Assembly (NCBI GenBank): GCA_964387845.1
Contig: CAYLXA010000006.1
Coordinates: 64,001-128,000, forward strand
Origin: an uncultured bacterium
GTDB lineage: Bacteria; Omnitrophota; Omnitrophia; Omnitrophales; Abzuiibacteriaceae
Reading direction: 5' to 3'
DNA length: 64,000 bases
Positions 12,309 to 54,327 of this stretch are shown here, one piece after another. A program made the position numbers and the translations under genes. The notes beneath the pieces were generated by a model. It had not been told where the DNA came from. It saw only the letters and a program-made list of their open reading frames with translations, and searched no databases. How positions within the stretch are numbered: position 1 is the stretch's first letter; each line of letters opens with the position of its first letter.

Positions 12309-12326
12309 GAGGCGCATGATTTTGCA

Positions 12327-17426: not shown

Positions 17427-17447
17427 AACGGTTCAGAAAGATTAAGT

Positions 17448-25354: not shown

Positions 25355-25383
25355 TTGACAGGGGGGTATTCAAACTGTATACT
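25355..25383 (+). promoter_or_regulatory. Near-consensus sigma70 promoter TTGACA-N17-TATACT driving the giant gene
   Basis: The -35 TTGACA is at 25355-25360, followed by a 17-nt spacer and the -10 TATACT at 25378-25383. This is ~107 nt upstream of the ATG at 25491, in a 291-bp AT-rich intergenic region. Confidence 0.45.
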
Positions 25384-25490: not shown

Positions 25491-28400
25491 ATGCGCCAGG
25501 TTGAAAAGAGTAAAACTTTTAATCTTTATCTAAAAGTTGTCGCGCTGATTGTTTTATTTACTTTTACGCTCAACACAATCGCGTGGGCTGACGGGTCTAG
25601 TAACTTAATTCAGTCGCTGCAGAATAATAAAGCCAGCACCTACCGTGACATTTTAGAATCCAACTTAGTGATTGATCAGTCCCTTCTCGACACTTCAATC
25701 ATTCCTGATAAAGTCGGGCACATCAAAAGCCGGTTTCAAGGTAAAAAGCCTCAGACGATTTACCATATTCAAGATGCGCACATCAACTACGATGCCCAGA
25801 TCAATATTTCCAAAATTATCGAGCAGGTATCAAAAGCAAACGGCACTGATTTGATCAACGTCGAAGGAGCCATGGGGCGACTGAACAATTACTGGCTCTC
25901 TTCATTTCCAAATGCAGAAGCGCGTGAATTGGTCGGTGATTACTTTGTCAGGGAAGGACGATTGAGCGGGCCGGCTTTCGCATCGATTGTCACACTTCCG
26001 AGATCAATCATCAATGGCGTCGAAGATGAAGCGCTTTATGAAGAAAACAGGCAGGCATTTTTAACGGCGCTCGCGTTTCGCGACCGGAATGAAGGGCTTT
26101 TGCAATCACTCCGGAATGGACTGGATCATGTGGCGCGCTACATTTTTCCGGATGATTTGCGCGAGCTCAGAATTCGCCATGACGCATTCCAGGAAGATTC
26201 GCTTTCGATGAAAGCATTTGTCCGGTATTTGGTGGAGTTGGCGCAGGCAAACAGCGTTAGCTTGTACCGTTACCGCCACATCGACGCGTTCATGAAATTA
26301 GTCGAGCTTGAAAAGTCGATCAATTTTGAAACAGCCGAAAAGGACCTCGAGGGATTATTGTCTGAGATTAAGAAGCGTATGCCGGCCCAGGATGTATCGG
26401 CTTTCGGGTTCAAAGTACTCCAATATCACCGCAAGAAATATTCCCGCAAAGATTTTTTTGAATATATTGATCAACTCATCAACAAATTACAGATTAGTGG
26501 CGAAGCGTTCATGCCGGCATTGAACTATGTGGCGTATATGCGCAGCTTCGACACAATCGGCGTGGAGCTTTTTGATGAGATCCGGCTCGCCGAGGATGAT
26601 TTGAAAAATAAATTGTTCCGCAACGAGACGGAAGTCAAGCTGGACCGGCTTTACCGGCTGCACGAATTGTTGAAGCACATTTTTGATTTCTCACTCACCA
26701 AAGAAGACGCCGAGTTTTTTTATTCCTATCGGGATGAATTTAAAATCACAAATTTCAAAGCCTTTATCGGCGAACAGGCGAAGGCGCTCGGTATTGAAGT
26801 CGAGCTGGATCCGAAACTCGAGCAGATTGACGATGATTTGCTGAAGGTCGAGAAATTTTACGAAATTGCTCTGAAGCGCGACAAAGTGTTGATCGAACGT
26901 TCTTTAAAAGCGATGGAAGCGGAAGGCCGCAAAAGCGCTTTTATAGTCACCGGCGGATTTCATACGCCCGGCATTGAACGCTATCTTCGAGAGCGTGATA
27001 TTTCTTATGTTGTGATCGCGCCCCGGATTTCTAGCAAAATCGACGAAGTCAAAGAAGCTATGCGCTATGAAAGCGCCATGCGCGATATGCCGTCCAAAAT
27101 CGAATCGCTGCTCAAAGAAGTTTACCAGCCGCAGAAAGCGATGATGCTGAACGATCCACGGTATCAAGTGTCGGCGCCGCAAGTGATTCGTCCGTTCGGG
27201 TCAGAAGGAAAGTTTGAAATTGGCGCCGGCGCAATTTTGCGCGGGTTTGTCGGAAAATCAGAACTTCGCCGGTGGCTGCCGGCTTTATCGGAAAATCTAA
27301 TCGCATCGGGCATCGATAGCAATTTGGCAGCACGCACACTGGAACGGTTTCAGGATTTCCAGCGAAACTTTGATTCTTACATCAAAGTCGAAATCAACAA
27401 GACCCATGTGATTGCGAGCAGGCTTCCGGATGGAAGAGTATTGATGACAGTGATGTATCCATCGAAAGATAAATCCGAAGTTGGCCGGCCGGGCGGTATG
27501 CATGATTACGCTAAAATTGCTGAAATCGGAAAGTTTGTCATTGAAGTATTTATAACGGATCGTGCTTTCTTGGAATCAATTTTGAAACGCGATGGTGCGA
27601 AGGTTGTTGAATCATCAGATTGGGTCTCTGAAGCATTGCCGCCAAGTTCACAGAGCACAGTTCCCGAAAGAGCCATTTCGGTTGATCTTGCCATGGCCAA
27701 GATGCATAACGGCGGCCAGACTTGGGAGTTATTGCAGAAAATCGCGCAAAGCAGCGACCTTAACTGGACTGCGATGAGCGTTAACGAAAAGTTGGCATCA
27801 ATTGAAAGTATTCTGATTGACCGGAAAATTAACCGGGACAATCTCGCGAGAGCCGCCTCCGAAGAATTAAAAATCATATCGCCATCCGCGGAAATCACGC
27901 TGCAATCTCGGTTCAGCGTTCGCGTCTTTATTTTTTTAGCGGAAAACGCCTTCGATTTAAAAAAGATGAGAATTAGGGATGAACTTTTATCCTTGATTCA
28001 ATCTCGTAACCGTTTTGATGAAGAGGTTGACGTAGCCGTATCCGCCGGTCCGGCCGCCTTGGAATCACTGCGCAGTGAACTTAGGCACTTAAACGCACTT
28101 GCGGGCGATACGCGCGTTGTGTCTCAGGCAGTCATTCGGGTCAATTCCGAGCTCCGAAAAATTTCAGCTCCCGTTTCAGAAGAAGTAAAGCCTGTTGCTT
28201 TAGAATCCGGCGCTCCTGCTGAAACTGCAAAAGTAGAAAAATCAGCCACAGAAGTTACGGAGCCGAAAGCACAAGAAGTAAAGCCAACGCGCGCTCCTCC
28301 TGCTCCAAAATTAAGCAAGGCGGAGATCATTAATAAAATTCTTGCTAAGCAAGCCGCAAAATCTTCAGAGCCGCTTAACTTTATTTCCAACATTTCACTC

Positions 28401-31400
28401 AAAGCAAAGACGGCCGACATTATCGCCGCAATCAAAGCGATTGGGTTTGATGATGAAGATCTCGAGCTTCTGTCGCAGCTTTCCGGCATTAACGCGGATT
28501 CTTCCGTTCAGGAATGGCGTTATGTTTACACGCAGGTCCGCCGGATCTTCGAAAAAATGTACAAAGTCCGAGACCAGCGCCACGGTGAAGCAAAAGCGGA
28601 ATCCAAAGAACCTTTGGTGGACCGCATTCTGCGCGCGTCCTGGAGTGCTGTGAAATGGTTTTCGAATCCATTCAAAGTGGGTAAGTGGCTGATCACGGTT
28701 GGCCCTCACTTGCTCGATAGTTTTTATTTTGGCTACACACGCCGCGCTTGGCAAATGACGCTTTTTGGAAAAGATATTAAACCATTTAACCGAGCGGATC
28801 ATATACAACAGGTTGTGGATACTTTGTCCGGAGCGATGTTGAATGCCAGAGAAAAGAACTTTGATTCATTTTTAAACCGGAGTCGGTTTGGAAATTCCAA
28901 TTGGAGCATTGTGTACCGTTTTGTTGATAAATACATCTCAAAATTATTTGTATTGCCGCACTTTGAATTTTTCATGAAACGCTGGAAGATGGCAGTTTTT
29001 GGTGTATTTGCACTCGGAACCGTGTCTGTGTTGCTGCCTGCAAGCGTCGCCGGCTACAGCTTGCTCGGTCCGGTGGGCATCTGGATTACAAGCGCTTTTG
29101 AAGGCGCAGGGTTCCTTAGCGTTGCTGCCAATGCTTTTGTTCATGCATTTACGGTTTCTTCATTTCTCAACACAGCGATTTTAGCGTTCATGCTTACTAT
29201 TCCTAATTTTGCAAAGCGTTTCTCCAATCTTCGCATGGACCGTATGATCATTACCCAGCTCGGGCGTTTGAAAAATCTGCAATCTTTGGATTATCCGGTT
29301 GTGCGTAAAGTTCTGAGCGATGTTACGCAGGGCGGGTTGCCCGTGGAGCAAAAATTACAAATCATTTTGGAATTGCAATCACTTCTTCCGCATGTCCGTT
29401 ACGATAATGACTCGCAGAAAACTTTATTTACGACTTTGGTCCATGACGAAGTGAGCCGAATTCAGGATGCGCTCAAAAGCAGCACGCAGGAACGCGCACC
29501 GCCAGTAGTTGAATCACCAAACTTGATCCAACGCTACATCATTTCTCCTCTCTTTGGTGTCATTCGCGCTACTTTCACAATCAACTTCGCAAAAGCGTTC
29601 GCAAAATCCATGTTTGGCATGCTGACGGTCGGTGCCGAAATCGGTGCTTTGGCGGGCGGCCATGCTCCAGGCGAGTACGGCGCTGCGCATTACATGGATG
29701 AATACCTGCTCTCGAAGCCCGTTTCATTCATCATGAAAAATATCACCGGCAATGCGGATTTCGATATCCAGGTTTCTTACTTTGAACCGGCGGTCAATTA
29801 CGTTGAACGCTTCATGATCAATGTCGGCCACTATGCGGTTGAAGGTGTCGAACACACATTCGGATTTAGTGCAGCAGAAATAGTCGCCAAAACATGGGCG
29901 AGCGTCCTCAATACTTTCGGCATTAAAACCGAGGTCGGTCAATTACTCTCAGAAGGCATCAGCCTTCAAGAAATTGAAGTGGCTCGTCAATTAGGCCTGC
30001 CGGCACAATTTCTAAAGTTCGGACAAAAAATACCAGAACCGCAAAAACAAATCGCCGCAGCGCCTGCCACAGGCGGCGCAGCGGGTATGGGACTTGCCAT
30101 GAACCCGATGCTGGCGATCGCTCAGATTGCCGCTATCAGCGCGATGGGTTCTACAAAAGAAGTACGGGATGGTACCGAATACAAAGATGAAAAGCCGAAG
30201 GGGGCGGCGATTCCGCCCGTTCTTTTTGAGAAATTTGAATTTGCGGTACCGCTTCATTCAAGCGTAGCAAATTTAGAAAACCTGAGAAAAGACTACGGAT
30301 CAGTTCCTGCTTCAGAAAGATACCAGGCTGCTCTGGCATTGCCAAAAGCCGAGGAAGAATATGAGGCGGCAAAGAAGAAAGCTTTCCTGAATTTGTTTGC
30401 CTCAGAGCGTCTGGCCGCAAAAGAAAAAGTTGATAGGTTGCAGTCGCTTACCGGAGATTCGATCTTAAAAGAAAAACAAAAAGTTTTCTGGAAACTGATC
30501 AAAGAAATTGACGAGCGCCAGAAATCCCTCGATAAGACCATCGAACAAATTTATAAAAGCGTTACCCATTACACTTCCGATAAGAAAGCAGCAGAACAAT
30601 TTATTGAGGAAGCCAGAGATCAGATTTCGGCGATGCGCGCGATGACGGATTATTTTTCCGCAGATGACGCGCGCTACGCCGTTAGAACCGGCGCCTGGCA
30701 GGTCATGGATGCCGCAGCTTCGGATAAAGAAGTAGCAAAAATTCGCGCGGATATGGCAAGCCGTGAACAAAAAATGGTGGGCCAACTCGAAAGAGTCAAA
30801 GATATTTTAGACCAGTGGCCGACCTATGTAGAAAGTGTTTTGAGCGGCGCTGACGTTGATGTGCCGGCACGTCTCATTGATGAAGAATATCTTCCATGGG
30901 GCGAGCGGGCAAAAGTTTGGCTGGCGGGAAAAGGCATTCCGAATGAAGTGATTGTTTCCACCGAAGGATTAATGACTTTGCTCCATGGTGTGCCTATTCC
31001 GATGCCGTGGGCTCAAAATGAAAGTTGGAAGGGGTCTTTACGGGTCGCGCAACATGATGTGAATCAGGGGCGGGCGGTTCTTGTTGTAACTGATCAAGGC
31101 AATGACTCTATCCGGCATGATGGTGCCGAAGTTTTTAGAGCAGGCTTGAAGGCAGGCATTAAAGAGGCTCTCGTGCTGCGTCATGACCTGATGCCATCGC
31201 AACGAAACAACTTCGTCGTAACGGCGACTTTTTATAGCGCTTCTGCTGAGCGGCTCATTCCTGTGCTCCTGGATGTGGTACGTCAGAATCCGGATATCAA
31301 ATTCAACGCGCGGATGTACGACACGACATTGCAAAAAACCAGTTCCAAACAAGCCGAAACAATCGCCAAACTGGAACAGGATGCTAAAGTTCTGCCCAAT

Positions 31401-46400: not shown

Positions 46401-49400
46401 CCGCAAACGCCGTATCGCCAGGGTTTGTTCAAGAAAGTGAGCGAATCGGTTAAAGGGTTTTCGCCTTTGACTTGGGTCAATATTATTTATTTTGCCTCGG
46501 TGTTGCTGATCGCCGGCTCTATGTCGTGGGCTTACTTTGTTGCGCACGCTTGGGCAATTTCACATTCAACGTTTTCGACTTTGATGGTCATTATGTTTTC
46601 TTATTTGAGTTTAACCAACGCTCACATCTTGGTTGATCGTCTGATTACGCTCCCAAAATTCAGGGACCGATTATTTAGAAAGCAGCCTGTGGATGATGTA
46701 AAAACACCTAATTTTAAAGATGCTTTCCGTGCAGGAAATTTTCCTCCCGGGCATCAGGCGGTTGTTGCCATTATCACTCAAGCCAAAGGGAACACTTTTG
46801 GGAAGCTTGATCAAAGAACCGGCGAGTTGAAAGGGCAAGTGATTGAAAATTTAATGGTCTCATTAAAGAATAATCCCGGCGTGCCCGGTGTCATTATTCA
46901 GGCCGGACAGGATTTGGATGATGTAGAAACGAACCGGCAAATCCGCATGATCGAGGCGCTTGAGAAGGCGTTAGGAACGCGCGTTTATTATTTCAGGCGC
47001 AATAATTTATTTTCGGCAGGTGATATCAATCTTGAGAAGAAATTCGGTGCTTTCCAGGAATATATGCGATTTGTCGGTGACGGAGCTATGTTTGCCGAGA
47101 ATGAAACCGATCAATATCCGGGCCGTCACTTTGGCTTGGATGTTACGAAGAATGTGAGTTGGGTTGCGGGTTGGACAGTTTTAGCAGCAACGCTTTTCAA
47201 TGCATTAATTCCCGGGCTGTTATTGAATCCTCTTGGGCTTGTCGTTGGCATTCTGGGAATTTCTCTTGGCGTTGGGTATCTTTGGACTTTGTGGAAATAT
47301 GGGCAAGCGAAGCGAATCTCAATTAAGACCATTGTCGGAAAGAATGAGCTCTCGGCGTTGACGCGTTCAACCCTTCCATATTATGACGTCATCTACGGCG
47401 ACTTAGGAGCGATCGGTTTTGTCGATATGGAAAGCGGACAATCTCTCCAAGGAAGCAGGACTTGGCGTGCGGACGAGGCATATTGGCAAAAAATAAAATT
47501 AGACACTGAACACCCGAACAAAATTTGGCTTTCATTTATCTTGGACGACAAAAACAAAGTTGGCATGAACTCTACCAACGAAGACACGGAGGGTCTGACA
47601 GAGGCGGATCGATGGCTGCGAGACCGAATGAAAGTTGAGAACCCTCTTGAGCGGCGCGAACAAAATGCCTATTACGAAGCAGTTCGAAAAGCAGCGGAAA
47701 CGATGTATCGCGAAAGTTGGGCAGCCATGGGGCAGCCCGTTTATGAAATTGGCAACCCGAATGCCAGCATGTTTTCGGAGATGCTTTCAATTGCTGCCCG
47801 AGTCGGTGAATTTTATGCGGGCGCGCAGAAAATATTCGGCCGCGGACGGGCGAATTTTACCGGCAAAGGGCCCGTTGTCGTGGACAGGTGGCTGCATGGA
47901 ACGCGTGAACGCCATCAGAAAATCATGTGGGGTTTCGGCTTGGGCAGTATCGGCGGTGTTTTGGTGGGTGCGCTGATTTCGTCTTTGCTCTTTGGTGTTG
48001 GGAATATCGGCTTCGGAATGCTAATTGGATATTTCTTGGGCGGAGCAATCCTCGGGAATTTTGAAATGCGGTACGGAACCGCATACGGCGTTATTTATTA
48101 CGGAGAACTTTCACATGATTATGCGGAAGGCGGCAGTGTGGGTGCGGCCTATCTCAGCAATGTCGGAATCACGGAAGATGCAACAACGGATTTGGCTAAA
48201 GAGAACGAGCGCGGCCCAACGCGCTGGTTCCAAGGCGTTATCCCGTACTGGCGTCATCAATTTGGCCCGGGCTACACACTCATTGATCGTTGGATGATGT
48301 TTCTGGCGGAGAAAATGTATTTAAATGATACGTTGTTCCTATTTTGGTTAATAGGCGGATTTGTCGGGATTACGTTTTCCGGTTTGGCTGACACTTTCTA
48401 TCCAGTGGCGCGTCTTCAAGAATATTCAGAACCTCTTTATGCAATGGGGTTGTATATATTGAACATGTTGGTCATCATAGGTTTTGCTAACTTTGTTGGA
48501 GCTTTTTGGAAGAGCGCCGATAACGCAGGCGTCGCTACTTCTAAGGAGAGGTTCCAGGCAATTGCTCGTTCCACGATGATTTATCTCAACAAACCCTTTA
48601 TCACGACCGCATACGCAATTCCGAACTTGTTCCGCGTATTAGTCGGCGGCGAACATCCGAGAGCGCGCGATTGGGCTCCGGAGCACAAGCTTAGGGCATT
48701 GGTTTTTGGATCACTTATTGGGGCAATTAATTTACTCTTACTTGCCAACCTTTTTGTCGGCTGGGTGTCGATTTCGTGGATGGTGCCGGCGGCAGTTTTT
48801 GTGGCTTCATTTTATGCGATTCATCGTTTGGCGGGGCGGTATATTCCGGTAGCCCGAATTTTTGCGGAACTTTTATATTTAACTCTCAAATTTTCTCTAT
48901 TTGCTATTCCAATCGTGGTTTTATCGGCCTATTCGTATATAAATGAACCTTTAGTGGCTTTTCTCGAGAAATTCTCGTTCATCAGCTTTATCAGCGCACC
49001 TATCCAGGCGCTCTTGATTCAAATTTTCGGAACTATCATTTTAGAGGCCAAAGCATTGAAATGGATTCGTGAACTTGAAGAAATTTTAAAAGAACCGCTG
49101 CCTTGGAGAGGGTTTACGCTGGTCGCCGGGTCGAAGGGGCCTTTGAAAATGTATGAATCGGCTGTGATGGTAAAGTGGTCGTTGATTACTACCGTTGCGG
49201 TGATTTTATCCCACGTAGTCATCACCTCTAACTTTTGGGTTATTTCAGGATGGGGAATTCCTCTCTTCGTGTCCTGGTCAATTGGGTGGTTTTATGTTTG
49301 GTATACCTCAAAAATGATGCCTGATTTTGTTCGTGAAACAAAAACAGATAAATCCGGAGAAGTCATTAAAGATGCTCAAGGTAAAGCCAAACTATTCCCG

Positions 49401-52400
49401 CGGCTATGGAAATCTATACCGAAACTGGCCATCGCCGAACTTGTAAAGACTTCGAAGAATAAAGAAGATAAGGAGATAATCAGAATCGGAGATGTGCAGA
49501 TTAAAATGGAAGACATTCGATGGAGGACGGTCCCGACCATTCTCTTTCTTTATACGAAAGAAGCCCTGTCTCTTAGCAGTATGAAGCAAAATTTGAATCC
49601 AAGTGTTCTTTGGAAGAAAATTAAATCTGCGCCTGCGCGGGCAGACCATTGGGCAAATGGTCTTTTTATGCTCGGAGTGGTGTTCGGCACTTTCCTATTT
49701 TTGGGTGTTGTGATCGGCACTCCGCTTTATTTATGGTTCGGGACCGGTCACTTATTTTTACCAACCGCATCGTTCTGGTCGAAGGTCGGAATCGTTTGGC
49801 AGTATTACATCGGAGCCGTAGTTGCCGCTCTGGTGTTGCCGGGCGTGTTTGGCCATTTATTTGCATTGACCGTATTTCCGCTGGTTTGGATCAATCGCCA
49901 ACTTGTCTTAATTAAAACGTTCTTCACGAAGGTTGTTGATACCAAGGGGCCTAATTTTAAAAAGGGCCATGACGACAAAGGATCGCCCGAAAGTATTCAA
50001 GAAGGCGTGCAAAATGTTCAACTCGAAGTTGCTAACTTTATTTCTCAAATTTCAAACCGCAAGATTTCAGGATTTGCCGATGAAGTGATGAGAGAAAAAG
50101 ATCCGGTCAAAATATTCGACATGTTCTTCAATCTGGATGCTTTTAAAATATGGAAATTTAGGATCGGCGGCAGTCTTTTCAGGTGGATTCATCAAGTAAA
50201 AATGAAGCGAGAAGCTTGGCGGATGAGTCAGCGTCCAGACGATTATATGTCGGTTGCACAACATCAGAACGAGATGTTTATTGCCTTAAAGGCGCTTTTT
50301 GAAGGCCGTACAGATTTTCTGAATCAAAAGACTTTTGATAAACAGGCTTTAGATTCCGCGCTCTTGAAGCGGCTACAAGAAAGCGTGGACAGTTTGAGCG
50401 AGAGAGAAAAAACATTGCTTGCCTTGACGGTTGTGCTCAAAGATTTTGGTAAAATCGCGACTGCAGGCCCCCTGGACCCTGTTGCAGGTTCGAATATCGT
50501 AGAAAAATTGCTGACAAAGCTCCAATTTGATCCGAAAGATGTCCACTTTATCAAGCAGCTTATTCTCAGAAACCGCGAGCTTGGGTCATTGCATTGGGGT
50601 GAAAAAGACCCGCTCAAGATTTTATCCGGTTTGGAAGTTGAAAAAACAGAGCTATTTCTAAAACTGCTGACCATTATTTATGTGGTGGATGTTTCGGCGG
50701 TAGGCACGGGAAAGCTAACCTCCACACATTTAAGTAATGCATTATTTATGCAGGATCAAAGCAACCTTTATTCCTTTGCTTTGACCTGGCCCGAGTTTCG
50801 CGCGGCAAGTTTTTATAGTAAAGCCGCAGGGCAGGTATTGGATTTAAACCAGCCGCAGTTTACCAATCATATAGATCCGGTTTTGTTGCAGGAAATCAAA
50901 GAGAGCGGCGGAAATTATGATTTCCGGGAATTTATGTATAACGTTACATTTCAAAGAGCGATCAATATTTTCCGCTATTTTGTCCGGAACGGACACCCCG
51001 AAAATGTCACCAAACTTTTATATATCTTTTTCAGGCTGTATCAAATTACCGGTATGAAATACATCGGAATTTTGGATGACAGCGAGCCGGTAGCCGAAGC
51101 TTTGGATAAAAAACTGTCCTCGATTTCATGGGAGGAGCTCCGGTTTGCTCGTGTTGAAGCCCCGTCTGTTGAAGTGAAATTGCAGAAAGAAACGGAGTGG
51201 GATACGACGCGGGATACTGTCTATGCTATCGAAAAGAGCACGGTGGTGGTAAGAAAGAAAACAAATTTAGATACCGTAGAAACCGTTCTGAGCCTGCCTT
51301 TTCAATATACGGATGACCACCAGCAAGTTCTTATTAACGCAGATCCGGACCCGTCCCCCCGCTCAGAGCTTCGCCAAATTAAAATCGGTGATTTGACATG
51401 GCTTTCTTCTATCAGTGAGTTTCAGAAACTCAAGGCTACAAACCCAGCTCGCGCAGCTCATATGGCAGAAGTGGTTCGATATTTTAAAGCATTTTCCGAA
51501 GGTGATTTTGCCTATTTTGCGGAAAGGCTGCAAGATCGTGCTGCAACTCAGCCGGACAAAATTGCAAGGTTTGAAACAAAGATGAGTGATCTCAAGAAGA
51601 AATTCGATAGTTTGAACGATGACCAGCGTTTGGCGCTGTGGCTTGCGGTCAATCTACACGATATCGGCTATTTAACCGGCGGAAGCAAAGACGAGAGCAC
51701 GCGAGGTTCCGTCTTGGCTGAAGAAATTTTGACACGGGAAGGCGTAAAGGAATCTGTAGTTGACCTTGCAAGCCGGATCGTGCTCGCGCATGAACTGTTG
51801 GGCAATGTGGTGGTCGGAGAGCGCGCACCGCAATCGGCCTGGCCCAGCATCGCGCCGTTATTTGATTTTCTGCAAATCCACACGGTGGTTGATGTGGCTG
51901 GTTATGGGTTGATGACTACTTATGTGTTGGATTGGTTTTTGGAAGTCAAAGACAAGTTAGAGCAGATTGCACAGACTTTTGATCAATATAGGTTGGAACG
52001 TTTGGTCAAGCCGGCTCCTAATGCTGATGCTATTAGTGCAGATGCTCTGGAGCATTTAAACGATGCTATCCGAAAAATTTTTGGAGATGAAGAAGAGATT
52101 TTGCGTTCTGTGCTGCGAAGCCGAGTTGAATTTTTAAGCCGCTCCAGCACCATTGCCCGCAAATTGGCTGCAATAGATCCTTCATATGAAGGTTATGCCA
52201 AATTTATGCGCATGGCCGGGCATCTCGCTCTCTTGGCGGGTGAGGACGCCAGCATTTCTGTTTTCAGCGATTTAGATCGGTTTGATGGCCGGCCCACTTC
52301 TAAAAAGGATATGGATCAGGCGTTGGAAGCTATCGCTCAGCGCATATTAGAATTGCCAAACACGATCAGTATTACGGATGCACGGTATCATTTGGAAGAG

Positions 52401-53606
52401 TCGGGTTGGAGGAGTTATTTTGAAGTTCCAATTATGCGTAAAGAGAATCAGATTACAATTTCAACGGTCAAATCGCACAAACCTCTTCTTGTATCGGAGA
52501 GCGATCTTTCAAATATCAGCGCGAATCAACTTCCGGTTCGCGATGCATGGGGAGTTGAAGCGAGAATTTTTAAAGACGAGTCTGGTGAGCATGGCGAAAA
52601 GGGAAAGTGGTATTTAAAAGTTGAAAACCTTTCTGATCGAGAACAATATCCTTGGGTTAAGTTTCCGTTTGAAATTTTTAAAGAGTTATACACGCCATTT
52701 TTTATAAAGGATGTTTCAAAAAGCCAAGCGCGATCCGGCTACGATATTTTATTTAATGCTAAAGGCCAGAATGGCAAGCCGGGAAATATCAATCCCGAAA
52801 CGGGTGAAATAGTCTTTCATTTAAGATCGTATCAACACCACCTGTTTGATCTCAGCACGATCAGCGTCATTGAAGATCGAGAGGTGCAAGATCAGGAAGG
52901 TGCGGTGAGTATTCATCGCATTATCCCGTCACAATTTTTTGAGCTTGGGCGTTCAGAGCTTCGGATTGCGGAAAATCGGGCGAGTGCTGCACCGGCCGGA
53001 TTGGTGGACGCGGTTTCATCCGCTCAACAAATGAAAAATGTCCAACGCTTGACAGCGCTTGAAGCTTCTCTGGGCGGGTATGATGCTGCGAATCGCGCGG
53101 TTGGGAATTTCTTAGCGCTTAACCTTGGTGAATTAGTTCCGAGCGTGCAAGGGTCAACGCGTGTTGTGATTGATTTGACCAGTTTCGATAATCTTGCTTC
53201 CGTCAGCGACTTGTTTAACAGTCAATCCATCGTGACTGTGCGCGCGGCAAATGAAGCGCAAAAGGCAAAATTAATAGCAGAGCAGGTTGAGCTGGGTATT
53301 TCCACTAAAGAATTGCGTATCATAACAGGTGATTTGGAAACAATTGTCCGCGGCGAGTGGGAAAAGCTGGGCACTGACTCACCTGATGCGCTCAGGCAAA
53401 TCATACCGCTTACCGGAACGGAGCGTTATCATGGGGCGATTGCCAGGGCGACGATTTTACAAGCTGTGCCTGGTGTTAACATCTTATCAACACAAGAGTT
53501 ACCGATGGTCAAAGACAGTGCTAAACACAGGATTTCGGTGGAAGACCTTGTGTTTGCAATGCAAGTAGCGGAAGAGGCAGAGAGACTGATCGGCCGTTTC
53601 GCGTAA
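25491..53606 (+). CDS. Giant 9,371-aa multi-segment protein with no recognisable catalytic domain
   Basis: A single uninterrupted 28,116-nt reading frame cannot arise by chance. Codon and GC usage are consistent with the neighbouring genes. The N-terminus KVVALIVLFTFTLNTIAWA is a signal/anchor sequence. A hydrophobic cluster at nt ~28640-29230 has 3-4 helices. There are extensive heptad-like, E/K/Q/L-rich coiled-coil tracts. A polytopic membrane region spans nt 46280-49920. Confidence 0.8.
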   Translation: MRQVEKSKTFNLYLKVVALIVLFTFTLNTIAWADGSSNLIQSLQNNKASTYRDILESNLVIDQSLLDTSIIPDKVGHIKSRFQGKKPQTIYHIQDAHINYDAQINISKIIEQVSKANGTDLINVEGAMGRLNNYWLSSFPNAEARELVGDYFVREGRLSGPAFASIVTLPRSIINGVEDEALYEENRQAFLTALAFRDRNEGLLQSLRNGLDHVARYIFPDDLRELRIRHDAFQEDSLSMKAFVRYLVELAQANSVSLYRYRHIDAFMKLVELEKSINFETAEKDLEGLLSEIKKRMPAQDVSAFGFKVLQYHRKKYSRKDFFEYIDQLINKLQISGEAFMPALNYVAYMRSFDTIGVELFDEIRLAEDDLKNKLFRNETEVKLDRLYRLHELLKHIFDFSLTKEDAEFFYSYRDEFKITNFKAFIGEQAKALGIEVELDPKLEQIDDDLLKVEKFYEIALKRDKVLIERSLKAMEAEGRKSAFIVTGGFHTPGIERYLRERDISYVVIAPRISSKIDEVKEAMRYESAMRDMPSKIESLLKEVYQPQKAMMLNDPRYQVSAPQVIRPFGSEGKFEIGAGAILRGFVGKSELRRWLPALSENLIASGIDSNLAARTLERFQDFQRNFDSYIKVEINKTHVIASRLPDGRVLMTVMYPSKDKSEVGRPGGMHDYAKIAEIGKFVIEVFITDRAFLESILKRDGAKVVESSDWVSEALPPSSQSTVPERAISVDLAMAKMHNGGQTWELLQKIAQSSDLNWTAMSVNEKLASIESILIDRKINRDNLARAASEELKIISPSAEITLQSRFSVRVFIFLAENAFDLKKMRIRDELLSLIQSRNRFDEEVDVAVSAGPAALESLRSELRHLNALAGDTRVVSQAVIRVNSELRKISAPVSEEVKPVALESGAPAETAKVEKSATEVTEPKAQEVKPTRAPPAPKLSKAEIINKILAKQAAKSSEPLNFISNISLKAKTADIIAAIKAIGFDDEDLELLSQLSGINADSSVQEWRYVYTQVRRIFEKMYKVRDQRHGEAKAESKEPLVDRILRASWSAVKWFSNPFKVGKWLITVGPHLLDSFYFGYTRRAWQMTLFGKDIKPFNRADHIQQVVDTLSGAMLNAREKNFDSFLNRSRFGNSNWSIVYRFVDKYISKLFVLPHFEFFMKRWKMAVFGVFALGTVSVLLPASVAGYSLLGPVGIWITSAFEGAGFLSVAANAFVHAFTVSSFLNTAILAFMLTIPNFAKRFSNLRMDRMIITQLGRLKNLQSLDYPVVRKVLSDVTQGGLPVEQKLQIILELQSLLPHVRYDNDSQKTLFTTLVHDEVSRIQDALKSSTQERAPPVVESPNLIQRYIISPLFGVIRATFTINFAKAFAKSMFGMLTVGAEIGALAGGHAPGEYGAAHYMDEYLLSKPVSFIMKNITGNADFDIQVSYFEPAVNYVERFMINVGHYAVEGVEHTFGFSAAEIVAKTWASVLNTFGIKTEVGQLLSEGISLQEIEVARQLGLPAQFLKFGQKIPEPQKQIAAAPATGGAAGMGLAMNPMLAIAQIAAISAMGSTKEVRDGTEYKDEKPKGAAIPPVLFEKFEFAVPLHSSVANLENLRKDYGSVPASERYQAALALPKAEEEYEAAKKKAFLNLFASERLAAKEKVDRLQSLTGDSILKEKQKVFWKLIKEIDERQKSLDKTIEQIYKSVTHYTSDKKAAEQFIEEARDQISAMRAMTDYFSADDARYAVRTGAWQVMDAAASDKEVAKIRADMASREQKMVGQLERVKDILDQWPTYVESVLSGADVDVPARLIDEEYLPWGERAKVWLAGKGIPNEVIVSTEGLMTLLHGVPIPMPWAQNESWKGSLRVAQHDVNQGRAVLVVTDQGNDSIRHDGAEVFRAGLKAGIKEALVLRHDLMPSQRNNFVVTATFYSASAERLIPVLLDVVRQNPDIKFNARMYDTTLQKTSSKQAETIAKLEQDAKVLPNLFVLNLIMDDGGYSNKGIDGTPDRVVNYEVRRNNGKGPFIGHFPGIGGADDPDTFAAVMKFRKQEIGAASSAAAEPVSEPKTRHHVVVVYQGKSATPPVDKVVDQVEGLGGWQIARMKGNEFSDTVRSQKALVAKKVEEFKSLNQPVKAVTRVDQFERALIKETESEIVPQQTAEVKAETEKIQVALTSAMPKLQEVEPVAEEAIELVSAAQKKSAVEQPVLLSDLPPLSYSQYRSEQTPGEQLSGIDQFVSKDIAEQMRKDASIFSPLAGAPVGTPTYGFRDQKGGDIFETENLSALELKNLENESEFQSADFATSIHVFLKARDLINRGAAERRLELFLEALRKVELSPDGLLYDRYDIKRHSKIGEKTNLQTSKAIYELAVQIQSEYEQIAKGRSKIDIRLIKEKNLIRLAGLVKEKFTRAQNIRLPEIPQPELPKRLFVEKDAEPLQIEESVAASKPLLAPEVVRVPQTAAVSGERAVVSSVEEIELVAVSTRPLVEEKVLEPAVEKQEPAVALVESIPAPEQEKVEPKPAVISVQYEMPGKGGDVKVAYPEFEPGQVQVMFQTEVSVPEKPAPVPASAPPSTTQANQPASLQAIEEKTVQAVPAAAPSLVSANKPVSIDEREPVEMEIKIAQQPEKVEEVEKAEPKVPAQKLRIQLPDFKRWIKSAKIAAAGLVALSGAWVNEVSAKFQAIPPATVQKAPEVKEAKEEIVKEEIALTPPVKIEAPSQEKWTDLEHQKTADVVMAALRSAPQDLREKVLELIRSKAGAPDYIREFDDLVPVPEDIRSRAKIETVSPGQEIKYFGEKEFWDAMQAIYPPDKDRPHFTPSYIRDNKVAMTHEELLNRKDLEIYVNGRSLGQKSADHLRQSKELEKLPIFFIRVGAGFVGFDYTGATISIGLRGQYSLGHDLAEWRQVLNVMSEEHKVAADILKRYVAFRAVGYQYAQAQEKVSNADAEIKRMNEQLAKGIYQVATHQDEYAIGKAISIIQHEIKTQQQWRYNQYDTSRVLGEIMKLDSRQVHVELNSDYVRQIRKEFADAPNSLKSLDPYKQQEIYLKTAMEILSDRIELAQRHLSSISYELRFDIFLANKASDLLALIGGFGVRKGNDRTLGQKYIDIAKKQIDRYKQYGDERYKVEKLVRDYQKLKERYDTTYTESVKAAQKHYELAKKLDALEVIPINELEQAWKAYESQLKEKDALYVQLQRIVAEMEGLRTAQLSAESIENPSPTMRELQKLEQRLKDTDQIDSLVQIREAEGVTGNELQFYKRIQQNPDKERSDIQAERVELVRQLREDASRIRAIQDKSGLNIDYLYPLDSRKGEWMWKTGRAIKGLDGKYYTIPMLIPIKAEYQSYAESLMERGLAKQNFLGNFQSSFSDRHIEDQAHELMNRYLEIRPKDGQKPAWSREERTQKIKEFNEMAESYLKRLEELVPAYAALDYAGRPKSYGERLMSDEEWQNFHSEYKKFERSYYAAQEMVAELSQEILPATGDAVNPQIDVLKAQKLAAETAKKSIDLNMFDEATNIADASDLTIPEHIIGPATVRAQTTDVPVRAWQEGLLSAAMPMIRKQSNVLFDLNIQGYNFELERLFKKDFETKELQAIPVIGWFVPGSDSEITEMRAQVLVIRQKVMKPDDSGSGGGLGGGMGGGGQLQLPGKLGKLQQMMGQMQQLMGSFQGLGNGAQTFLGAAGQRFPMVARAQGLLQGINAQQQIFNQFTGGQNSSLLPFVTGQMNQLNQTGRIPSVGLASSGATGPHGALQTSTPGRVSGEAYSADAFNQGLDSLRQGGDLAKEVTGKLQGQGGEQGGMTEEIEYEIAGVFTVQFKLTGSNEEKQNQLRTLIALNEQNKVLYETDQQKKLLEIAIDYEGKVQLLRARKLHREFVNTTRRAILDKFTEWRVTPAKQVEFEADLAVIDKNIDDLEKEIAETPNKIREALKVTPEAANGLLHMMKSEIEKHGIVDIRELNGIENLRRQIVENPYADRAAGYRVLAAQLEESRAKLFEKIKNAYQVELSVSTKLEFNVVLQELGYAIRNAVAGEQRGTINDFLGQIQTGLNPQEMQGQRDRLEALTTAIRKSGLKREVMDALFEVAIVERVMQERVRQNEKNRMEQLIRLEEAKLRLRREEIQLAKIHEQKRITPADNWIKQVLLSAEIYIQELLLMGARDDLAKAIMQSLSAIAMSEEEIRSLQVLTNAEQRIHESNRRIGLLQAQAVESDVSTREEFFELQRELKWLYERRDQYSLPSTPDGSLNELDQKIAENHKAIQALVADALLRNPKIKEKVTKEEVIRDELLISKKNIEEEKQAVISRHDQEVKVILDPMIQLHQERAQLGIDAANRLDVERAKKGEDPVLVELSDARLAQSVSEVEGIDRNAVLDVMSKVMNVIGDIEVAQTMLREWDGKALPRYLDRLLRNLYFLAGTNQLDDVLRGTAQGSFKMGIGGSLISDEDLRNLIRAEASRWAIRVKEVVRDKIIRDEQAKIYSEYLQYVSLIEELYIDLKNIRALEKAIKAYEARAKRQYDTERLNDATGPYEKLEQAKVRLYVSLKRIKVQRAQLEFLTQEYLPHNVSVFKSVKASGKSVEENLEIEFRTSAAHEQGVDLEALGAMLSGEVAAENPFPAGSDKAVFWNKFYRSNIRGDEFIREVRKLRMSPEDVSKLKKENGLEQWIWGSSDNQFQVAKAMNENLNADAIGFFLFPFGSFKFDINAFLGGSWDFKNKPEFLNIINASAEVEFDWGAKWQAFQSAVQKSLNEAFKLDEISNDAVRRRHQMLMEYAFMQIMYEASQEILKTAIENESTWYKALMRGKIDWDKYYTSNTHGLARIWDLERTLKEEWVALHAASRNIQNSLEESGIQSTSVLIQSFPLPLPPEIEHKLVSEAEIQLQEHAAQQEKAALEKAAQDAAARTKFFSEFKDLFSRLKSLTENMLVNLENVMNKLGDLQDQYKPTQHHGELSPEAKAILPDTNEFLRVLKVKTQSGVDSVDLETFAERMATFGRERHMSSEDLQNLIRSAIEIAKKLEAAPGEAPNELQTKWAAMSAPGTKADGSAFLMSERWPPFLEIPLRHLFTQEEIIRSRGSIADKNLNLYQIGAILLSAMREQAAKELDYRFENNLDELVNGVEAYKQIRAGSGDASAVQRYLSWYRKWVIPVGSAESLFSTGVLLYRPWVKFQRAGDQEINIDDIRQHWSFVSTSFVKHIQKSEKFQAIAQYLGLDPVEFFDSQKDQGRLYAIISELLNTGIIKTLPTTEAELEALNAEIDHFFGELMPLIEERKYFYLTVGALPNYSDLTQMQHYTALDGRLTGTGGAELPFAKFQEDAARMEDGIGKLQKLLPSDIIFYQQVKEAKNVLDVIKNASDYSQISDLEGLMDHLREIVDYARETYASLLLGDAYYHYGFFRENKAVLVQLNLIDKKDLNSKGALKPDSLRPVTQKYNQLLLHSKDYIEHFYLGKPIDFSSMDQIGVWNALAQTKAAGLDDTVFSAYLNWASRIAGIREKSALSDANRELAAQLWKIIPGLQDKISEQKYAEALASGLAVHILLNPELTEADLIQLIQNIKAMLQNPELVESVIRESQSELEIIYGELRSIDLTRQKDFGIFFNAFAEAHELGFSQFLVRHQRTMNLIQEHQRIREQEKGTGSRAETALSRAILIGSQIERVKNGDGAVQIDEISFFQNQKARNSVMWVLSGMADEGVDPFVLKSEAILDFLREFYSDQPVRYDHLGRVSVDAESKTAVELAAELAREREVVFQGQDALTISAEGIKQSRVIWNRVMAELGGMADEGLQTWIQKHRGSDKQIGVFPMLSNREQLNKLFPSIEAFYQSIFGAANTPEINPETFKANKRVQMLVTAWLGSAAEEGLAEWNAKSDVIARILSNPEERKQVIEATREYAHALEKILKIDYPEISEQSLVDDRRARALVLAWTGAQQEDGKVKWARKNSDIITFSERVNAQADFAEGLDNVTRHYYEAKYGEAVGRSWTPSQRGQQVGLIFMLARQYVENPNLTDGRLIEYVNAMADLAPVFIGRDASSRSFDQSRIHQTYLRLIGETKSRHDQQHEMGWVDAELAYMAELIGWDGVNWKKRDRWRSLSSSEKIEHRYRVLEKATDPVIQQEARDLMALVSSKSSDQWDLRAHPSDLGFLVTWADMKMEAGEATDLFGQYRHVIDSSAFSRYLKEFDIAQEFRKELASTFSEVVKKANGEDADRNQIERFYELMGRVSSFAKFTSLQFDQKIKVNLEVIDALKRYYGQSASDSSQAMIDGVIDLLSVLKIEPVELAGMQAENYYQLREMMYLMAKISEYRRNREMANDGPVPQAYVEDMKREYRSVFVESMLPGFAQKIVPAKHGKLENWIGDFESIIRELADYPIELESSDAISQYNFARFLKNLEEEGIVLDDASVKIYERVFKQYQLMGLASWWLDQKLPEAEEQFTLSEIKERIQRKKLVWALNEKYWNSESLHMPVTADEISFLADLELYEDEYEHFFRMSALFQNWASAHLGRHLFFDEIIYFYFAPGKYFGDLVMPFRGGLSRLLTWGQDPDLLSRFRAKHLFENVLTGPEQALYQVAMNRENEERRFILWHGQKQLLRVIGLGPDYEDYWYDILHEKQTLGEYASEKYLKELLVMGRVLSEGVRWLALGNHFSYDDNMLTDEFKRNQYIILRLLTRREYRILTSDEEKMSIKKLIEYTRDQTKNKKVEIENPSEWVESLKELARAHNRVIETEQELKEIIKSILWDAETIIDEADREYDVKLDQDSVLKVIMEQRINGELHQITKAEEMITKHFANSVIGRNSIELSNEENQMPVSVLIEKWLNDYELQNTPIAGLKDRWILAANDRSLDYVSIKTIFSDLKTMQDAWRNAPLFRPMDLIESLKLVNKVRRFGLDNIGIVEPEILTPVQRTEKYKKNKKLFLGMIGSDLIADSTQQIAILFNQQTKNWSIQKTIDDLEKDKSIETKQESFRLIHGAAVVLVLSLILVTIRAHYLKWRQMQSAKKAGLPTPQTPYRQGLFKKVSESVKGFSPLTWVNIIYFASVLLIAGSMSWAYFVAHAWAISHSTFSTLMVIMFSYLSLTNAHILVDRLITLPKFRDRLFRKQPVDDVKTPNFKDAFRAGNFPPGHQAVVAIITQAKGNTFGKLDQRTGELKGQVIENLMVSLKNNPGVPGVIIQAGQDLDDVETNRQIRMIEALEKALGTRVYYFRRNNLFSAGDINLEKKFGAFQEYMRFVGDGAMFAENETDQYPGRHFGLDVTKNVSWVAGWTVLAATLFNALIPGLLLNPLGLVVGILGISLGVGYLWTLWKYGQAKRISIKTIVGKNELSALTRSTLPYYDVIYGDLGAIGFVDMESGQSLQGSRTWRADEAYWQKIKLDTEHPNKIWLSFILDDKNKVGMNSTNEDTEGLTEADRWLRDRMKVENPLERREQNAYYEAVRKAAETMYRESWAAMGQPVYEIGNPNASMFSEMLSIAARVGEFYAGAQKIFGRGRANFTGKGPVVVDRWLHGTRERHQKIMWGFGLGSIGGVLVGALISSLLFGVGNIGFGMLIGYFLGGAILGNFEMRYGTAYGVIYYGELSHDYAEGGSVGAAYLSNVGITEDATTDLAKENERGPTRWFQGVIPYWRHQFGPGYTLIDRWMMFLAEKMYLNDTLFLFWLIGGFVGITFSGLADTFYPVARLQEYSEPLYAMGLYILNMLVIIGFANFVGAFWKSADNAGVATSKERFQAIARSTMIYLNKPFITTAYAIPNLFRVLVGGEHPRARDWAPEHKLRALVFGSLIGAINLLLLANLFVGWVSISWMVPAAVFVASFYAIHRLAGRYIPVARIFAELLYLTLKFSLFAIPIVVLSAYSYINEPLVAFLEKFSFISFISAPIQALLIQIFGTIILEAKALKWIRELEEILKEPLPWRGFTLVAGSKGPLKMYESAVMVKWSLITTVAVILSHVVITSNFWVISGWGIPLFVSWSIGWFYVWYTSKMMPDFVRETKTDKSGEVIKDAQGKAKLFPRLWKSIPKLAIAELVKTSKNKEDKEIIRIGDVQIKMEDIRWRTVPTILFLYTKEALSLSSMKQNLNPSVLWKKIKSAPARADHWANGLFMLGVVFGTFLFLGVVIGTPLYLWFGTGHLFLPTASFWSKVGIVWQYYIGAVVAALVLPGVFGHLFALTVFPLVWINRQLVLIKTFFTKVVDTKGPNFKKGHDDKGSPESIQEGVQNVQLEVANFISQISNRKISGFADEVMREKDPVKIFDMFFNLDAFKIWKFRIGGSLFRWIHQVKMKREAWRMSQRPDDYMSVAQHQNEMFIALKALFEGRTDFLNQKTFDKQALDSALLKRLQESVDSLSEREKTLLALTVVLKDFGKIATAGPLDPVAGSNIVEKLLTKLQFDPKDVHFIKQLILRNRELGSLHWGEKDPLKILSGLEVEKTELFLKLLTIIYVVDVSAVGTGKLTSTHLSNALFMQDQSNLYSFALTWPEFRAASFYSKAAGQVLDLNQPQFTNHIDPVLLQEIKESGGNYDFREFMYNVTFQRAINIFRYFVRNGHPENVTKLLYIFFRLYQITGMKYIGILDDSEPVAEALDKKLSSISWEELRFARVEAPSVEVKLQKETEWDTTRDTVYAIEKSTVVVRKKTNLDTVETVLSLPFQYTDDHQQVLINADPDPSPRSELRQIKIGDLTWLSSISEFQKLKATNPARAAHMAEVVRYFKAFSEGDFAYFAERLQDRAATQPDKIARFETKMSDLKKKFDSLNDDQRLALWLAVNLHDIGYLTGGSKDESTRGSVLAEEILTREGVKESVVDLASRIVLAHELLGNVVVGERAPQSAWPSIAPLFDFLQIHTVVDVAGYGLMTTYVLDWFLEVKDKLEQIAQTFDQYRLERLVKPAPNADAISADALEHLNDAIRKIFGDEEEILRSVLRSRVEFLSRSSTIARKLAAIDPSYEGYAKFMRMAGHLALLAGEDASISVFSDLDRFDGRPTSKKDMDQALEAIAQRILELPNTISITDARYHLEESGWRSYFEVPIMRKENQITISTVKSHKPLLVSESDLSNISANQLPVRDAWGVEARIFKDESGEHGEKGKWYLKVENLSDREQYPWVKFPFEIFKELYTPFFIKDVSKSQARSGYDILFNAKGQNGKPGNINPETGEIVFHLRSYQHHLFDLSTISVIEDREVQDQEGAVSIHRIIPSQFFELGRSELRIAENRASAAPAGLVDAVSSAQQMKNVQRLTALEASLGGYDAANRAVGNFLALNLGELVPSVQGSTRVVIDLTSFDNLASVSDLFNSQSIVTVRAANEAQKAKLIAEQVELGISTKELRIITGDLETIVRGEWEKLGTDSPDALRQIIPLTGTERYHGAIARATILQAVPGVNILSTQELPMVKDSAKHRISVEDLVFAMQVAEEAERLIGRFA
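32690..33600 (+). repeat. Low-complexity P/E/V/K/A-rich (PEVK-like) disordered linker, ~300 aa, inside the giant protein
   Basis: Examples of the composition are PAVEKQEPAVALVESIPAPEQEKVEPKPAV, VPEKPAPVPASAPPSTT and KAPEVKEAKEEIVKEEIALTPPVKIEAP. It is followed by one hydrophobic helix (IAAAGLVALSGAWV). Confidence 0.6.
36300..36835 (+). repeat. Q/G/M/N-rich low-complexity segment, ~175 aa, inside the giant protein
   Basis: Examples of the composition are DDSGSGGGLGGGMGGGGQLQLPGKLGKLQQMMGQMQQLMGSFQGLGNG and GQGGEQGG. It has prion-like or FG-like character. Confidence 0.6.
42440..43375 (+). repeat. Four degenerate tandem ~80-aa modules with core W(V/L/T)xG(M/A)A(D/E)EG(x)xxW inside the giant protein
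   Basis: The cores are MWVLSGMADEGVDPF, VMAELGGMADEGLQTW, VTAWLGSAAEEGLAEW and LAWTGAQQEDGKVKW. They recur with a period of ~240-270 nt. Confidence 0.5.
46280..49920 (+). other. Polytopic membrane-embedded region of the giant protein (roughly 16-20 predicted TM helices with soluble loops)
   Basis: Hydrophobic runs include AAVVLVLSLILVTI, VNIIYFASVLLIAGSMSWAYFV, WTVLAATLFNALIPGLLLNPLGLVVGILGISLGVGYLW, SIGGVLVGALISSLLFGVGNIGFGMLIGYFLGGAIL, LFLFWLIGGFVGITFSGL, LYILNMLVIIGFANFVGAF, ALVFGSLIGAINLLLLANLFVGWV, AVILSHVVITSNFWVISGWGIPLFVSWSIGWFYVWY and LFMLGVVFGTFLFLGVVIGTPLYLWF. Confidence 0.6.
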
Positions 53607-54305: not shown

Positions 54306-54327
54306 TACTTCACTTTTTGTGGTGACA

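Follow-up and report, generated by a model that had tools for sequence, protein, structure and literature searches.

A giant Omnitrophota-type gene encodes a mosaic protein with a predicted TIKI-fold header, a Cgs-like glycosyltransferase core and recurrent RSE[L/V]R motifs

The window analysed here is a stretch of 64,000 nucleotides (nt) from an uncultured bacterium (GenBank assembly GCA_964387845.1, contig CAYLXA010000006.1, positions 64,001 to 128,000 of the forward strand). A single open reading frame (ORF) within it encodes a protein of 9,371 amino acids (aa), hereafter the giant, which an initial annotation made from the letters alone had described as a membrane-anchored, coiled-coil-rich protein. 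We found that the giant is a mosaic of a header with a TIKI fold, a fast-evolving middle of about 5,000 aa, a synthase resembling the cyclic-glucan synthase Cgs, HD-like modules and a C-terminal module, punctuated by the short motif RSELR. The coordinates of these parts and of the flanking elements are collected in Table 1.

Table 1 Features of the giant gene and its flanks. Positions are those of the window; residues are those of the giant. TM, transmembrane; GT, glycosyltransferase.
Feature	Position (nt)	Strand	Residues (aa)	Remarks
Sigma-70-like promoter candidate	25355..25383	+		TTGACA-17-TATACT, 11/12 consensus match; consensus only
Giant ORF	25491..53606	+	1-9371	ATG start; 9,371 aa plus stop
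Signal peptide / signal anchor	25491..25589	+	1-33	K/R-rich N-end, hydrophobic aa 12-30, ...TIAWA/DG; hydropathy
N-module	25668..27245	+	60-585	TIKI / erythromycin-esterase / TraB / ChaN-fold hydrolase domain (predicted)
Motif copy 1, K-SELR	27255..27269	+	589-593	Low-confidence (disordered) linker after N-module
Motif copy 2, RSELR	28071..28085	+	861-865	
Motif copy 3, N-SELR	28143..28157	+	885-889	
First membrane cluster	28983..29210	+	1165-1240	2-3 helices
P/E/V/K/A-rich linker	32688..33590	+	2400-2700	E15, V14, A14, P13, K9 %
Assembly junction within giant gene	34742..34871	+	~3084-3127	~130 nt; covered by neither Logan contig; window assembly alone
G/Q/M-rich low-complexity segment	36288..36860	+	3600-3790	G22, Q14 %
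Helical module, 4-5 copies of ~75-100 aa	42420..43871	+	5644-6127	W/L-x-G-x-A-[DE]-E-G signature
Conserved family core	42666..49955	+	5726-8155	Helical region plus polytopic membrane domain; BLASTP
Polytopic membrane region	46284..49913	+	6932-8141	About 15-16 hydrophobic helices
Cgs-like processive GT-A glycosyltransferase domain (predicted)	46743..48320	+	~7085-7610	
Catalytic signature (putative)	48111..48236	+		S-H7542-D-x-x-E7546 ... T-E7562-D7563 ... R7574 ... R7578-W7579-x-x-G7582; invariant columns in alignment A1
HD-like module 1	50172..51380	+	8228-8630	Degenerate
Motif copy 4, RSELR	51360..51374	+	8624-8628	Follows HD-like module 1; RSELR also found at the corresponding border of P0047
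HD-like module 2	51408..51920	+	8640-8810	H8657, H8719-D8720, H8767, D8801
Motif copy 5, RSELR	52950..52964	+	9154-9158	218 aa before C-terminus
C-terminal alpha/beta-looking module	52965..53603	+	9159-9371	Ends ...GRFA; no Pfam match
196-aa two-TM protein	53651..54241	+		44 nt downstream of giant; candidate partner

The ORF was confirmed as a single ATG-initiated frame on the plus strand, and its G+C content (0.44-0.51) did not differ from that of the flanks, in line with the initial annotation. With a codon model trained on the 22 other genes of the window, every window of 300 codons scored +40 to +99 nats in frame 0 (neighbouring genes, +32 to +114 per 900 nt), and frames 1 and 2 were strongly negative throughout. 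Because the frame-0 score is uniform, the whole 28 kb is coding in one frame, the homologue-free parts included. Two Logan contigs of run SRR15237813 carry the gene, _37960 with the upstream genes and aa 1-3083 and _85822 with aa 3128-9371 and the downstream genes, and in the stretches of 20-21 kb retrieved for comparison both matched the window at 100% identity. In favour of a mis-assembly that joined at least two genes or hid frameshifts are the ~130 nt (34,742-34,871) that lie outside both Logan contigs and the apparent origin of all three assemblies in one sequencing run. Against this, no repeats were found at the junction and codon usage is equal on either side of it. An ortholog from a different sample and assembler (L088, on the 440-kb contig Ga0268299_1000056) stays open for 3,923 aa with no stop and is colinear with giant aa 1-3607, one alignment block (aa 2450-3607) spanning the junction. 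In addition, the order of N-module, core, and RSELR plus C-terminal module recurs in four relatives (P0038, P0039, P0045 and P0047). These results largely refute an assembly artefact, which is very unlikely, and show the giant ORF to be one real gene. The bacterium that carries it is of the Omnitrophota type.

To place the giant among known proteins, curated Pfam and NCBIfam profiles were run on its halves and on ten 1,000-aa tiles, and the halves were compared with PDB sequences by phmmer; neither half matched a PDB sequence. The earlier statement that there is no recognisable enzymatic domain holds at the level of Pfam, NCBIfam and PDB sequences, but family profiles and structure prediction overturned it. 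The first 1,600 aa had 37 database relatives, of which the named ones were nearly all Candidatus Omnitrophota/Omnitrophica. Their homology was confined to aa ~6-580, except in P0001, where it extended to aa 1500. Downstream of the N-module, these proteins continue into enzymes unrelated to one another, among them SecA (in P0023 and others), PutA, aldolase, NUDIX, M48, ABC1 and GH130. The conserved core, in turn, was colinear in seven giants (P0038, P0039, P0040, P0042, P0043, P0045 and P0046), and its membrane part is common to at least 9 other proteins of 2.5-8 thousand amino acids (kaa). The N-module is common to the giant, to the core relatives P0038, P0039 and P0045, and to P0047. On the database names of its relatives, the giant was assigned to the Omnitrophota class of long proteins, which agrees with the initial suggestion of an Omnitrophota-type giant.

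In a metagenome scan, the N-module was found at no fewer than 486 loci. Eighty of these were kept, and in most of them the ORF runs beyond the 10-kb flank (>3,800 aa); the N-module is thus a common header, standing at the start of hundreds of very long ORFs. At one locus (L084, 316-18304), a 2,662-aa N-module protein (P0014) is followed after 184 nt by a separate gene of 10,237 aa, so that long genes of the family can stand in tandem. Relatives of the membrane core were far fewer: with aa 6930-8129 as query, exhaustive HMMER searching of 1.84 billion representatives gave only 19, mostly of 2.5-8 kaa, and no ordinary GT2 was among these 19 matches. A word-seeded search of 5.8 billion proteins gave no match for aa 2700-4900 and none for aa 6901-9371; the latter was a false negative, as the exhaustive HMMER search found relatives. 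The GTDB representative genomes held no close relative of aa 6901-9371, and a profile of the conserved helical region preceding the glycosyltransferase (A3) returned nothing from the PDB. Identity of the giant to the L088 ortholog was 63% for aa 1-949, with 86% for the N-module in a tblastn comparison, and fell to ~45% for aa 1063-3607. Upstream of the L088 gene lies the same OEP-MFP-AcrB-AcrB operon (L088 1-9480) with 69-86% aa identity; the giant thus evolves much faster than the adjacent RND proteins.

The header showed strong conservation in a small set of positions. Across 21 aligned relatives of 23-44% identity, Q94, D95, H97, Q103, E125, G126, G176, E178, Y183, R463, G488-G-F-H491 and P511 were invariant. 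AlphaFold2 (AF2) with the family alignment gave a model with a mean predicted local distance difference test (pLDDT) of 85.5 and a predicted template modelling score of 0.75, in which the two ends of the module form a beta/alpha core and a ~290-aa helical insertion lies between them. The alpha+beta fold with a parallel beta-sheet core is that of the TIKI/Ere/TraB/ChaN superfamily. RRSP of MARTX toxins, a member with two His, two Glu and a basic residue, uses E3900, H3902, E3930, R4001 and H4030 for catalysis (PMC6254334), and D95, H97, E125, R463 and H491 of the N-module match these in order and spacing. Compared with the superfamily members Bcr135/136, EreC, HopBA1 and RRSP (PMC6254334), the N-module differs in having Asp in place of the first Glu, in its all-helical insertion between the halves, and in being fused to a preceding signal peptide at the start of giant ORFs. 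These results indicate a header of the TIKI/erythromycin-esterase fold with a complete D/E-x-H, E, R, H active-site pattern, which is predicted to be a hydrolase. The Pfam families TraB, Erythro_esteras and Cofac_haem_bdg did not match the giant, and the N-module profile gave helical noise only against PDB sequences; a stretch matching GH94 cellobiose phosphorylase in that search (E 0.0085) was treated as chance.

The membrane core contains the second enzyme-type module. Alignment of aa 7030-7680 with 11 relatives gave the invariant columns G7458-K7459, H7542-D7543, E7546, E7562, R7574, R7578-W7579 and G7582; L-D-D-K-N (7351-55) was nearly invariant and offers a candidate (D7352-D7353) for the UDP-coordinating DxD, D624/D626 in Cgs, which HMMER did not align. 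Searched against the PDB, the profile matched Cgs best (E=0.007) in two colinear stretches, the second of which aligns LSHDxxEG...VED...RWARG of Cgs to the giant. The AF2 model (mean pLDDT 57, confident in the soluble core) placed Cgs at the top of a Foldseek search (prob 0.99), followed solely by cellulose, hyaluronan and chitin synthases. A GT-A (modified GT2) fold docked under the TM bundle, as in Cgs, was found, and so were the RW motif and the acidic base. Cgs uses D739 as its catalytic base and has R773 in its RW motif (PMC10901819); the counterparts in the giant are E7562/D7563, with T-E7562-D7563 aligned to V-E-D, and R7578 in the invariant R7578-W7579. The core of the giant thus probably works like a processive membrane synthase of the Cgs kind.

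Fusion partners of the same core in relatives indirectly support a glucan-type glycosyltransferase. P0043 carries a PF10091 domain that matches the beta-1,2-glucanase EeSGL1 (8XUJ, E=9e-64), the cyclisation domain of CGS in 8WY1 (7e-14) and, with E=6e-7, the CY domain of Cgs; a CY-like domain was found only in this relative and not in the giant. P0046 is fused to a GT5+GT1 glucan synthase. Cgs and the giant are not orthologs. The giant has three times the length of Cgs, is without the GH144-like cyclase and GH94 phosphorylase domains, and has about 15-16 TM helices where Cgs has 6, and its glycosyltransferase is split by two hydrophobic hairpins (aa 7222-7261 and 7478-7521). Identity to other processive GT2 synthases (BcsA 4P00, the hyaluronan synthases 8SMM/7SP7, CesA, CslF6 and chitin synthase) was 6-13%. 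The giant differs from these in having no Pfam GT2 match (none at E<=1 on the 1,000-aa tiles) and no PilZ or cyclic di-GMP module, and its family has invariant G-K-G and L-D-D-K-N motifs of its own.

Behind the core, aa 8228-8810 resemble two HD domains at sub-threshold level. Module 1 is 34% identical to P0047 7234-7603, a region that reaches E=7e-4 against PF01966, below the cut-off. At aa 8310-8344 (nt 50418-50522) the giant reads L-K-D-F-G-K and L-D-P-V-A-G where P0047 reads F-H-D-Y-G-R and L-H-P-V-V-G, so that the metal-binding histidines are lost in the giant and kept in P0047. Module 2, in which an H...HD...D metal-binding motif can be read from the His and Asp residues given in Table 1, reached E=4.4e-5 against the NCBIfam GlnD model PRK03381, far below its curated cut-off, and E=0.014-0.038 against PF01966 (14.7-16.1 bits; cut-off 22).

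The remaining architecture was largely as the initial annotation had drawn it. The N-terminal signal or anchor, of the Sec type, was recovered with 3 K/R before and 0 after the hydrophobic stretch; its W-A-D-G junction is conserved among relatives, and it is presumably cleaved. The core of the first hydrophobic cluster (aa 1169-1237, nt 28995-29201) falls inside the predicted nt 28640-29230, and the surrounding aa 852-1500 are conserved in P0001 at 33% identity. By composition, both the PEVK-like linker and the Q/G/M segment could be recognised; the linker holds a weakly hydrophobic helix at about aa 2637-2657, and comparable linker-plus-helix layouts occur in relatives. The four W-x-G-x-A-E-E-G modules proved to be four to five copies with a slightly looser signature, and related repeats were visible in P0043 and P0051. 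The polytopic region, for which 16-20 helices had been proposed over ~1,200 aa, and the soluble C-terminal region of ~1,230 aa were both found where expected.

A different picture emerged for the coiled coil. Several thousand residues of heptad-like structure had been claimed, but 3.5-residue periodicity in a crude Fourier test was weak over most of aa 2800-6900, with scattered peaks only. This bears on the possibility that the giant is a non-enzymatic, envelope-spanning structural or mechanical scaffold made mostly of coiled coil and elastic linkers, whether of a cytoskeletal kind, as an S-layer anchor or as a contractile tether. Such a scaffold would be in keeping with the PEVK-like and G/Q-rich segments, with about 5,000 aa (aa ~1500-5700 and 5726-6900) of helix-favouring composition rich in E/K/Q/R/L and free of assignable domains, and with the fast evolution of the middle (~45% identity to the ortholog, compared with 69-86% for the neighbouring genes). 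Besides the weak periodicity, three enzyme-type modules with conserved catalytic residues (TIKI/Ere-type fold, Cgs-like glycosyltransferase and HD-like domains), the absence of internal repeats such as fibrous giants contain, and the many ordinary enzymes that relatives carry in the same frame all speak against it, and we consider the scaffold improbable. Within aa ~2850-4720 (nt ~34040-39650), short beta-hairpin-like stretches (aa 2856-2885, 3785-3800, 3975-3995, 4405-4420 and 4650-4715) are each followed by long helices, a pattern that resembles TolC-type outer-membrane factors; Pfam gave no OEP signal for it.

We also weighed whether the giant could be an exported and displayed surface adhesin or host- or prey-attachment protein, like RTX adhesins, dockerin-type giants or 'Archaeovorins'. 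Omnitrophota giants have been proposed to act in attachment and predation (bioRxiv 10.1101/2023.11.21.568195); an N-terminal signal sequence is present, and a polysaccharide product could itself serve attachment. However, Pfam found no Ig-like, cadherin, RTX, dockerin, TSP3, SecA-DEAD or C39 domain, there are no tandem repeats, and about 20 hydrophobic helices in the whole giant, including the 1,200-aa polytopic block, point to an integral inner-membrane protein. An adhesin is therefore distinctly improbable. The narrower model of a repeat adhesin (RTX, Big, cadherin) was rejected, since BLASTP found no internal repeats in the giant and Pfam no matches, and no Pfam match placed the giant among NRPS/PKS megasynthases.

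The modules of the giant are separated by copies of a short motif. SELR occurs 5 times (aa 590, 862, 886, 8625 and 9155) where 0.49 is expected, and 0 of 2,000 shuffles reached 5. In all fetched relatives taken together, the residue preceding the SELR-type motif, which was outside the search pattern, was Arg in 41 of 50 instances, and no other flanking position was conserved. Proteins with a close N-module contained, outside that module, 22 strict copies in 43,813 aa against 0.14 expected (over 100-fold), and RSEV and SEVR were the most widely shared 4-mers among them without any prior. None of the 22 other window proteins had the motif. In an independent metagenome set, its density was 47 per 100 kaa in ORFs with an N-module at least 36% identical, 6 per 100 kaa in a distant N-module subfamily and 5.6 in other ORFs on the same contigs, a control that is not clean, as some of these neighbours are themselves long family members (probably, for example, the gene beside P0014 in L084).

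The placement of the motif was equally regular. All close relatives of full length have a copy 194-262 aa from the C-terminus, and in P0046 two copies (5849 and 6432) bracket the GT5-GT1 unit (Pfam domains 5870-6414). P0042 and P0043, which have no N-module in the available sequence, have no motif copy. RSE[L/V]R thus has the marks of a linear recognition site between modules, a short, family-specific and enriched motif of the kind found at domain borders in polyproteins. Together with a header from a fold family that includes proteases, its position suggests polyprotein processing at RSELR. A further proposal, which is tentative and which we would not call likely, is a bacterial polyprotein system with RSE[L/V]R as its processing site. 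The exported TIKI-fold header, in this and in hundreds of other Omnitrophota giant ORFs, would be a site-specific (auto)protease cutting the megadalton precursor into enzyme-sized products; for the present giant the products would be the header, the spacer, the Cgs-like polymer synthase, the HD enzyme and the C-terminal module. A literature search for RSELR/RSEVR returned only papers on PL7 alginate lyases, which report a conserved lyase motif; this was judged a coincidence, other PL7 motifs not having been checked in the giant. The string RSE[L/V]R was not found in the context of Omnitrophota giants in the searchable literature.

The C-terminal end of the giant has a regularity of its own. 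Almost every full-length member of the family has Ala as its last residue (...SAA, TAA, RAA, MAA, RFA), preceded by an alpha/beta-looking module of ~215 aa. Pairwise similarities between the C-terminal modules of relatives were mostly insignificant, and a hidden Markov model built from the relatives missed the giant. The modules share position, size and the Ala terminus, and we claim no homology between them; the conserved Ala hints at a C-terminal recognition signal.

Taken together, we think the giant is probably a modular envelope enzyme embedded in the inner membrane, making and exporting a glucan-like polymer and perhaps processed at RSELR. On the cytoplasmic face, the core would take sugar from a nucleotide-sugar and build a polymer, most likely a beta-glucan-type chain, which would be threaded through the core's own membrane domain. 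The HD module may act on a phosphoester, as a regulator or accessory enzyme, and the ~5,000-aa helical and low-complexity middle, which evolves fast, may serve as a spacer or scaffold. Cuts at RSELR, made in the precursor by the exported N-terminal hydrolase or by another protease, would release or separate the modules, and the gene would then work as a polyprotein.

Several results weigh against this interpretation. Over the whole giant, Pfam and NCBIfam gave nothing above curated cut-offs, and the HD-like domains rest on matches below threshold. No characterised family covers most of the length: only about 15% is assigned, and aa 1500-5700 belong to the remaining ~85%. The lineage rests on the database names of relatives, and the PNPase of the window found its best matches among GTDB representatives at ~55% identity in scattered phyla. 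The TIKI fold is also found in esterases and in a haem binder. The first TM helix runs N-in/C-out, the N-module is predicted to be exported, and the glycosyltransferase and HD parts are expected to be cytoplasmic; positive-inside analysis did not fix the membrane topology, and because the compartments may differ, the C-terminal RSELR sites may be out of the header's reach. In the AF2 model of the glycosyltransferase, the catalytic C-terminal part was poorly modelled. The giant has neither an SGL-like or cyclase match (phmmer --max) nor a GH94 or Glycoamylase match in Pfam.

The same core also raises the question of activity. The UDP-binding D527 of Cgs aligns to a non-conserved Q/T/D in the family, and the Asp of 'TED' is present in the giant and variable in relatives, only the Glu being conserved; a pseudo-enzyme is possible for these reasons. 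If the glycosyltransferase-like and TIKI-like modules were dead relics, the protein could be a membrane transporter, a sensor or a docking platform, a notion to which the visible degeneration of HD-like module 1, the failure of all curated profiles and the inactive TIKI-fold protein PMT (PMC6254334) also lend weight. On the other hand, the residues that stay invariant across relatives of 25-50% identity are the catalytic positions (HD..E, E and RW in the glycosyltransferase; D-x-H, E, R and H in the header), such invariance is hard to explain without catalysis, and the fusion partners are active-looking carbohydrate enzymes. We therefore regard the relic explanation as unlikely and keep to that of a polymer-making envelope enzyme.

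Around the giant gene, the promoter candidate lies in a 291-nt intergenic region, which bears out the near-consensus promoter noted initially. The small downstream product was described as a TM-HAMP protein; the two TM helices stand, whereas the HAMP assignment has no Pfam support, no family matching the protein in Pfam and a HAMP-like AGPxxRF being visible by eye only. An RND efflux operon (OEP, MFP and two tandem AcrB-type pumps; 15471-25199) lies directly upstream of the giant gene. Just upstream of nusA, positions 54278-54351 contain a 12/12 sigma-70 consensus (TTGACA-16-TATAAT) followed by a terminator-like hairpin with a 10-bp stem, which overlaps the start of the longest nusA ORF; on the Logan contig, nusA was called from a later start (406 aa). 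The element may be a leader or attenuator, or else simply the true promoter with a shorter nusA. Farther upstream, a cluster at 9886-12791 encodes a carbamoyltransferase, an SxtJ-family protein, DUF5989 and a hexapeptide-repeat transferase (Logan contig annotation), with 7TM-type histidine kinases and a number of response regulators beside it (1556-9811).

The size of the giant alone is no surprise, since giant Omnitrophota genes are already a known kind, although most of their products lack annotation. Such proteins had been called extremely rare in bacteria, but a recent survey reports thousands of 10 kaa or more in Omnitrophota, with 15% of those >=10 kaa 'Pfam-dark' and structure prediction deferred (bioRxiv 10.64898/2026.06.07.730766). 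The giants described before (West-Roberts et al. 2023; Nielsen & Lui 2026) are like the present one in lineage, in a very long single ORF, in a signal peptide and many TM helices, in mosaic enzyme modules with carbohydrate-related content, in sequence-unique middle parts, in an N-terminal region 'lacking identifiable domains' and in suspected post-translational cleavage. At 9.4 kaa, the present protein is below their 10-30 kaa thresholds, and it falls in the 'Pfam-dark' fraction. The hallmarks of 'Archaeovorin'- or dockerin-type giants of >30 kaa (SecA-DEAD/SecA_PP_bind, C39, S8, dockerin/TSP3) were not detected in it by Pfam. N-terminal C39 or S8 peptidases have been proposed to cleave Omnitrophota giants, and the authors who described these name as a central open question whether these are one chain or cleaved, the cleavage points being not known (bioRxiv 10.1101/2023.11.21.568195). 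The searched text of both preprints gives no cleavage points and mentions neither a TIKI-type header nor a glucan-synthase-type core, and 'cleav' is absent from that of 10.64898/2026.06.07.730766.

By functional analogy only, MARTX toxins and viral polyproteins offer a precedent, with a giant precursor, enzyme-sized modules, short conserved linker sites and a built-in protease. In MARTX toxins, inositol hexakisphosphate activates the protease, a cysteine protease domain. The sites in the giant are not homologous to those of MARTX toxins or viral polyproteins, and the giant itself is a putative polyprotein.

The header domain, present at no fewer than the 486 metagenome loci counted here, provides a handle on 'Pfam-dark' giants, and TIKI-type hydrolases include site-specific proteases. 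The membrane core, related to cyclic-glucan, cellulose and hyaluronan synthases, points to polysaccharide production in one giant family. Together with the header, the motif at module borders makes the cleavage of giant proteins directly testable, and it can be searched for in existing or new proteomics data. Should processing fail, the locus would still be a well-supported and partly deciphered member of a poorly understood class. Should it hold, such ORFs would best be annotated and folded after cutting at RSE[L/V]R, and the giant genes of Omnitrophota would be operon-like units of 'one ORF, many proteins' rather than genes for giant proteins.

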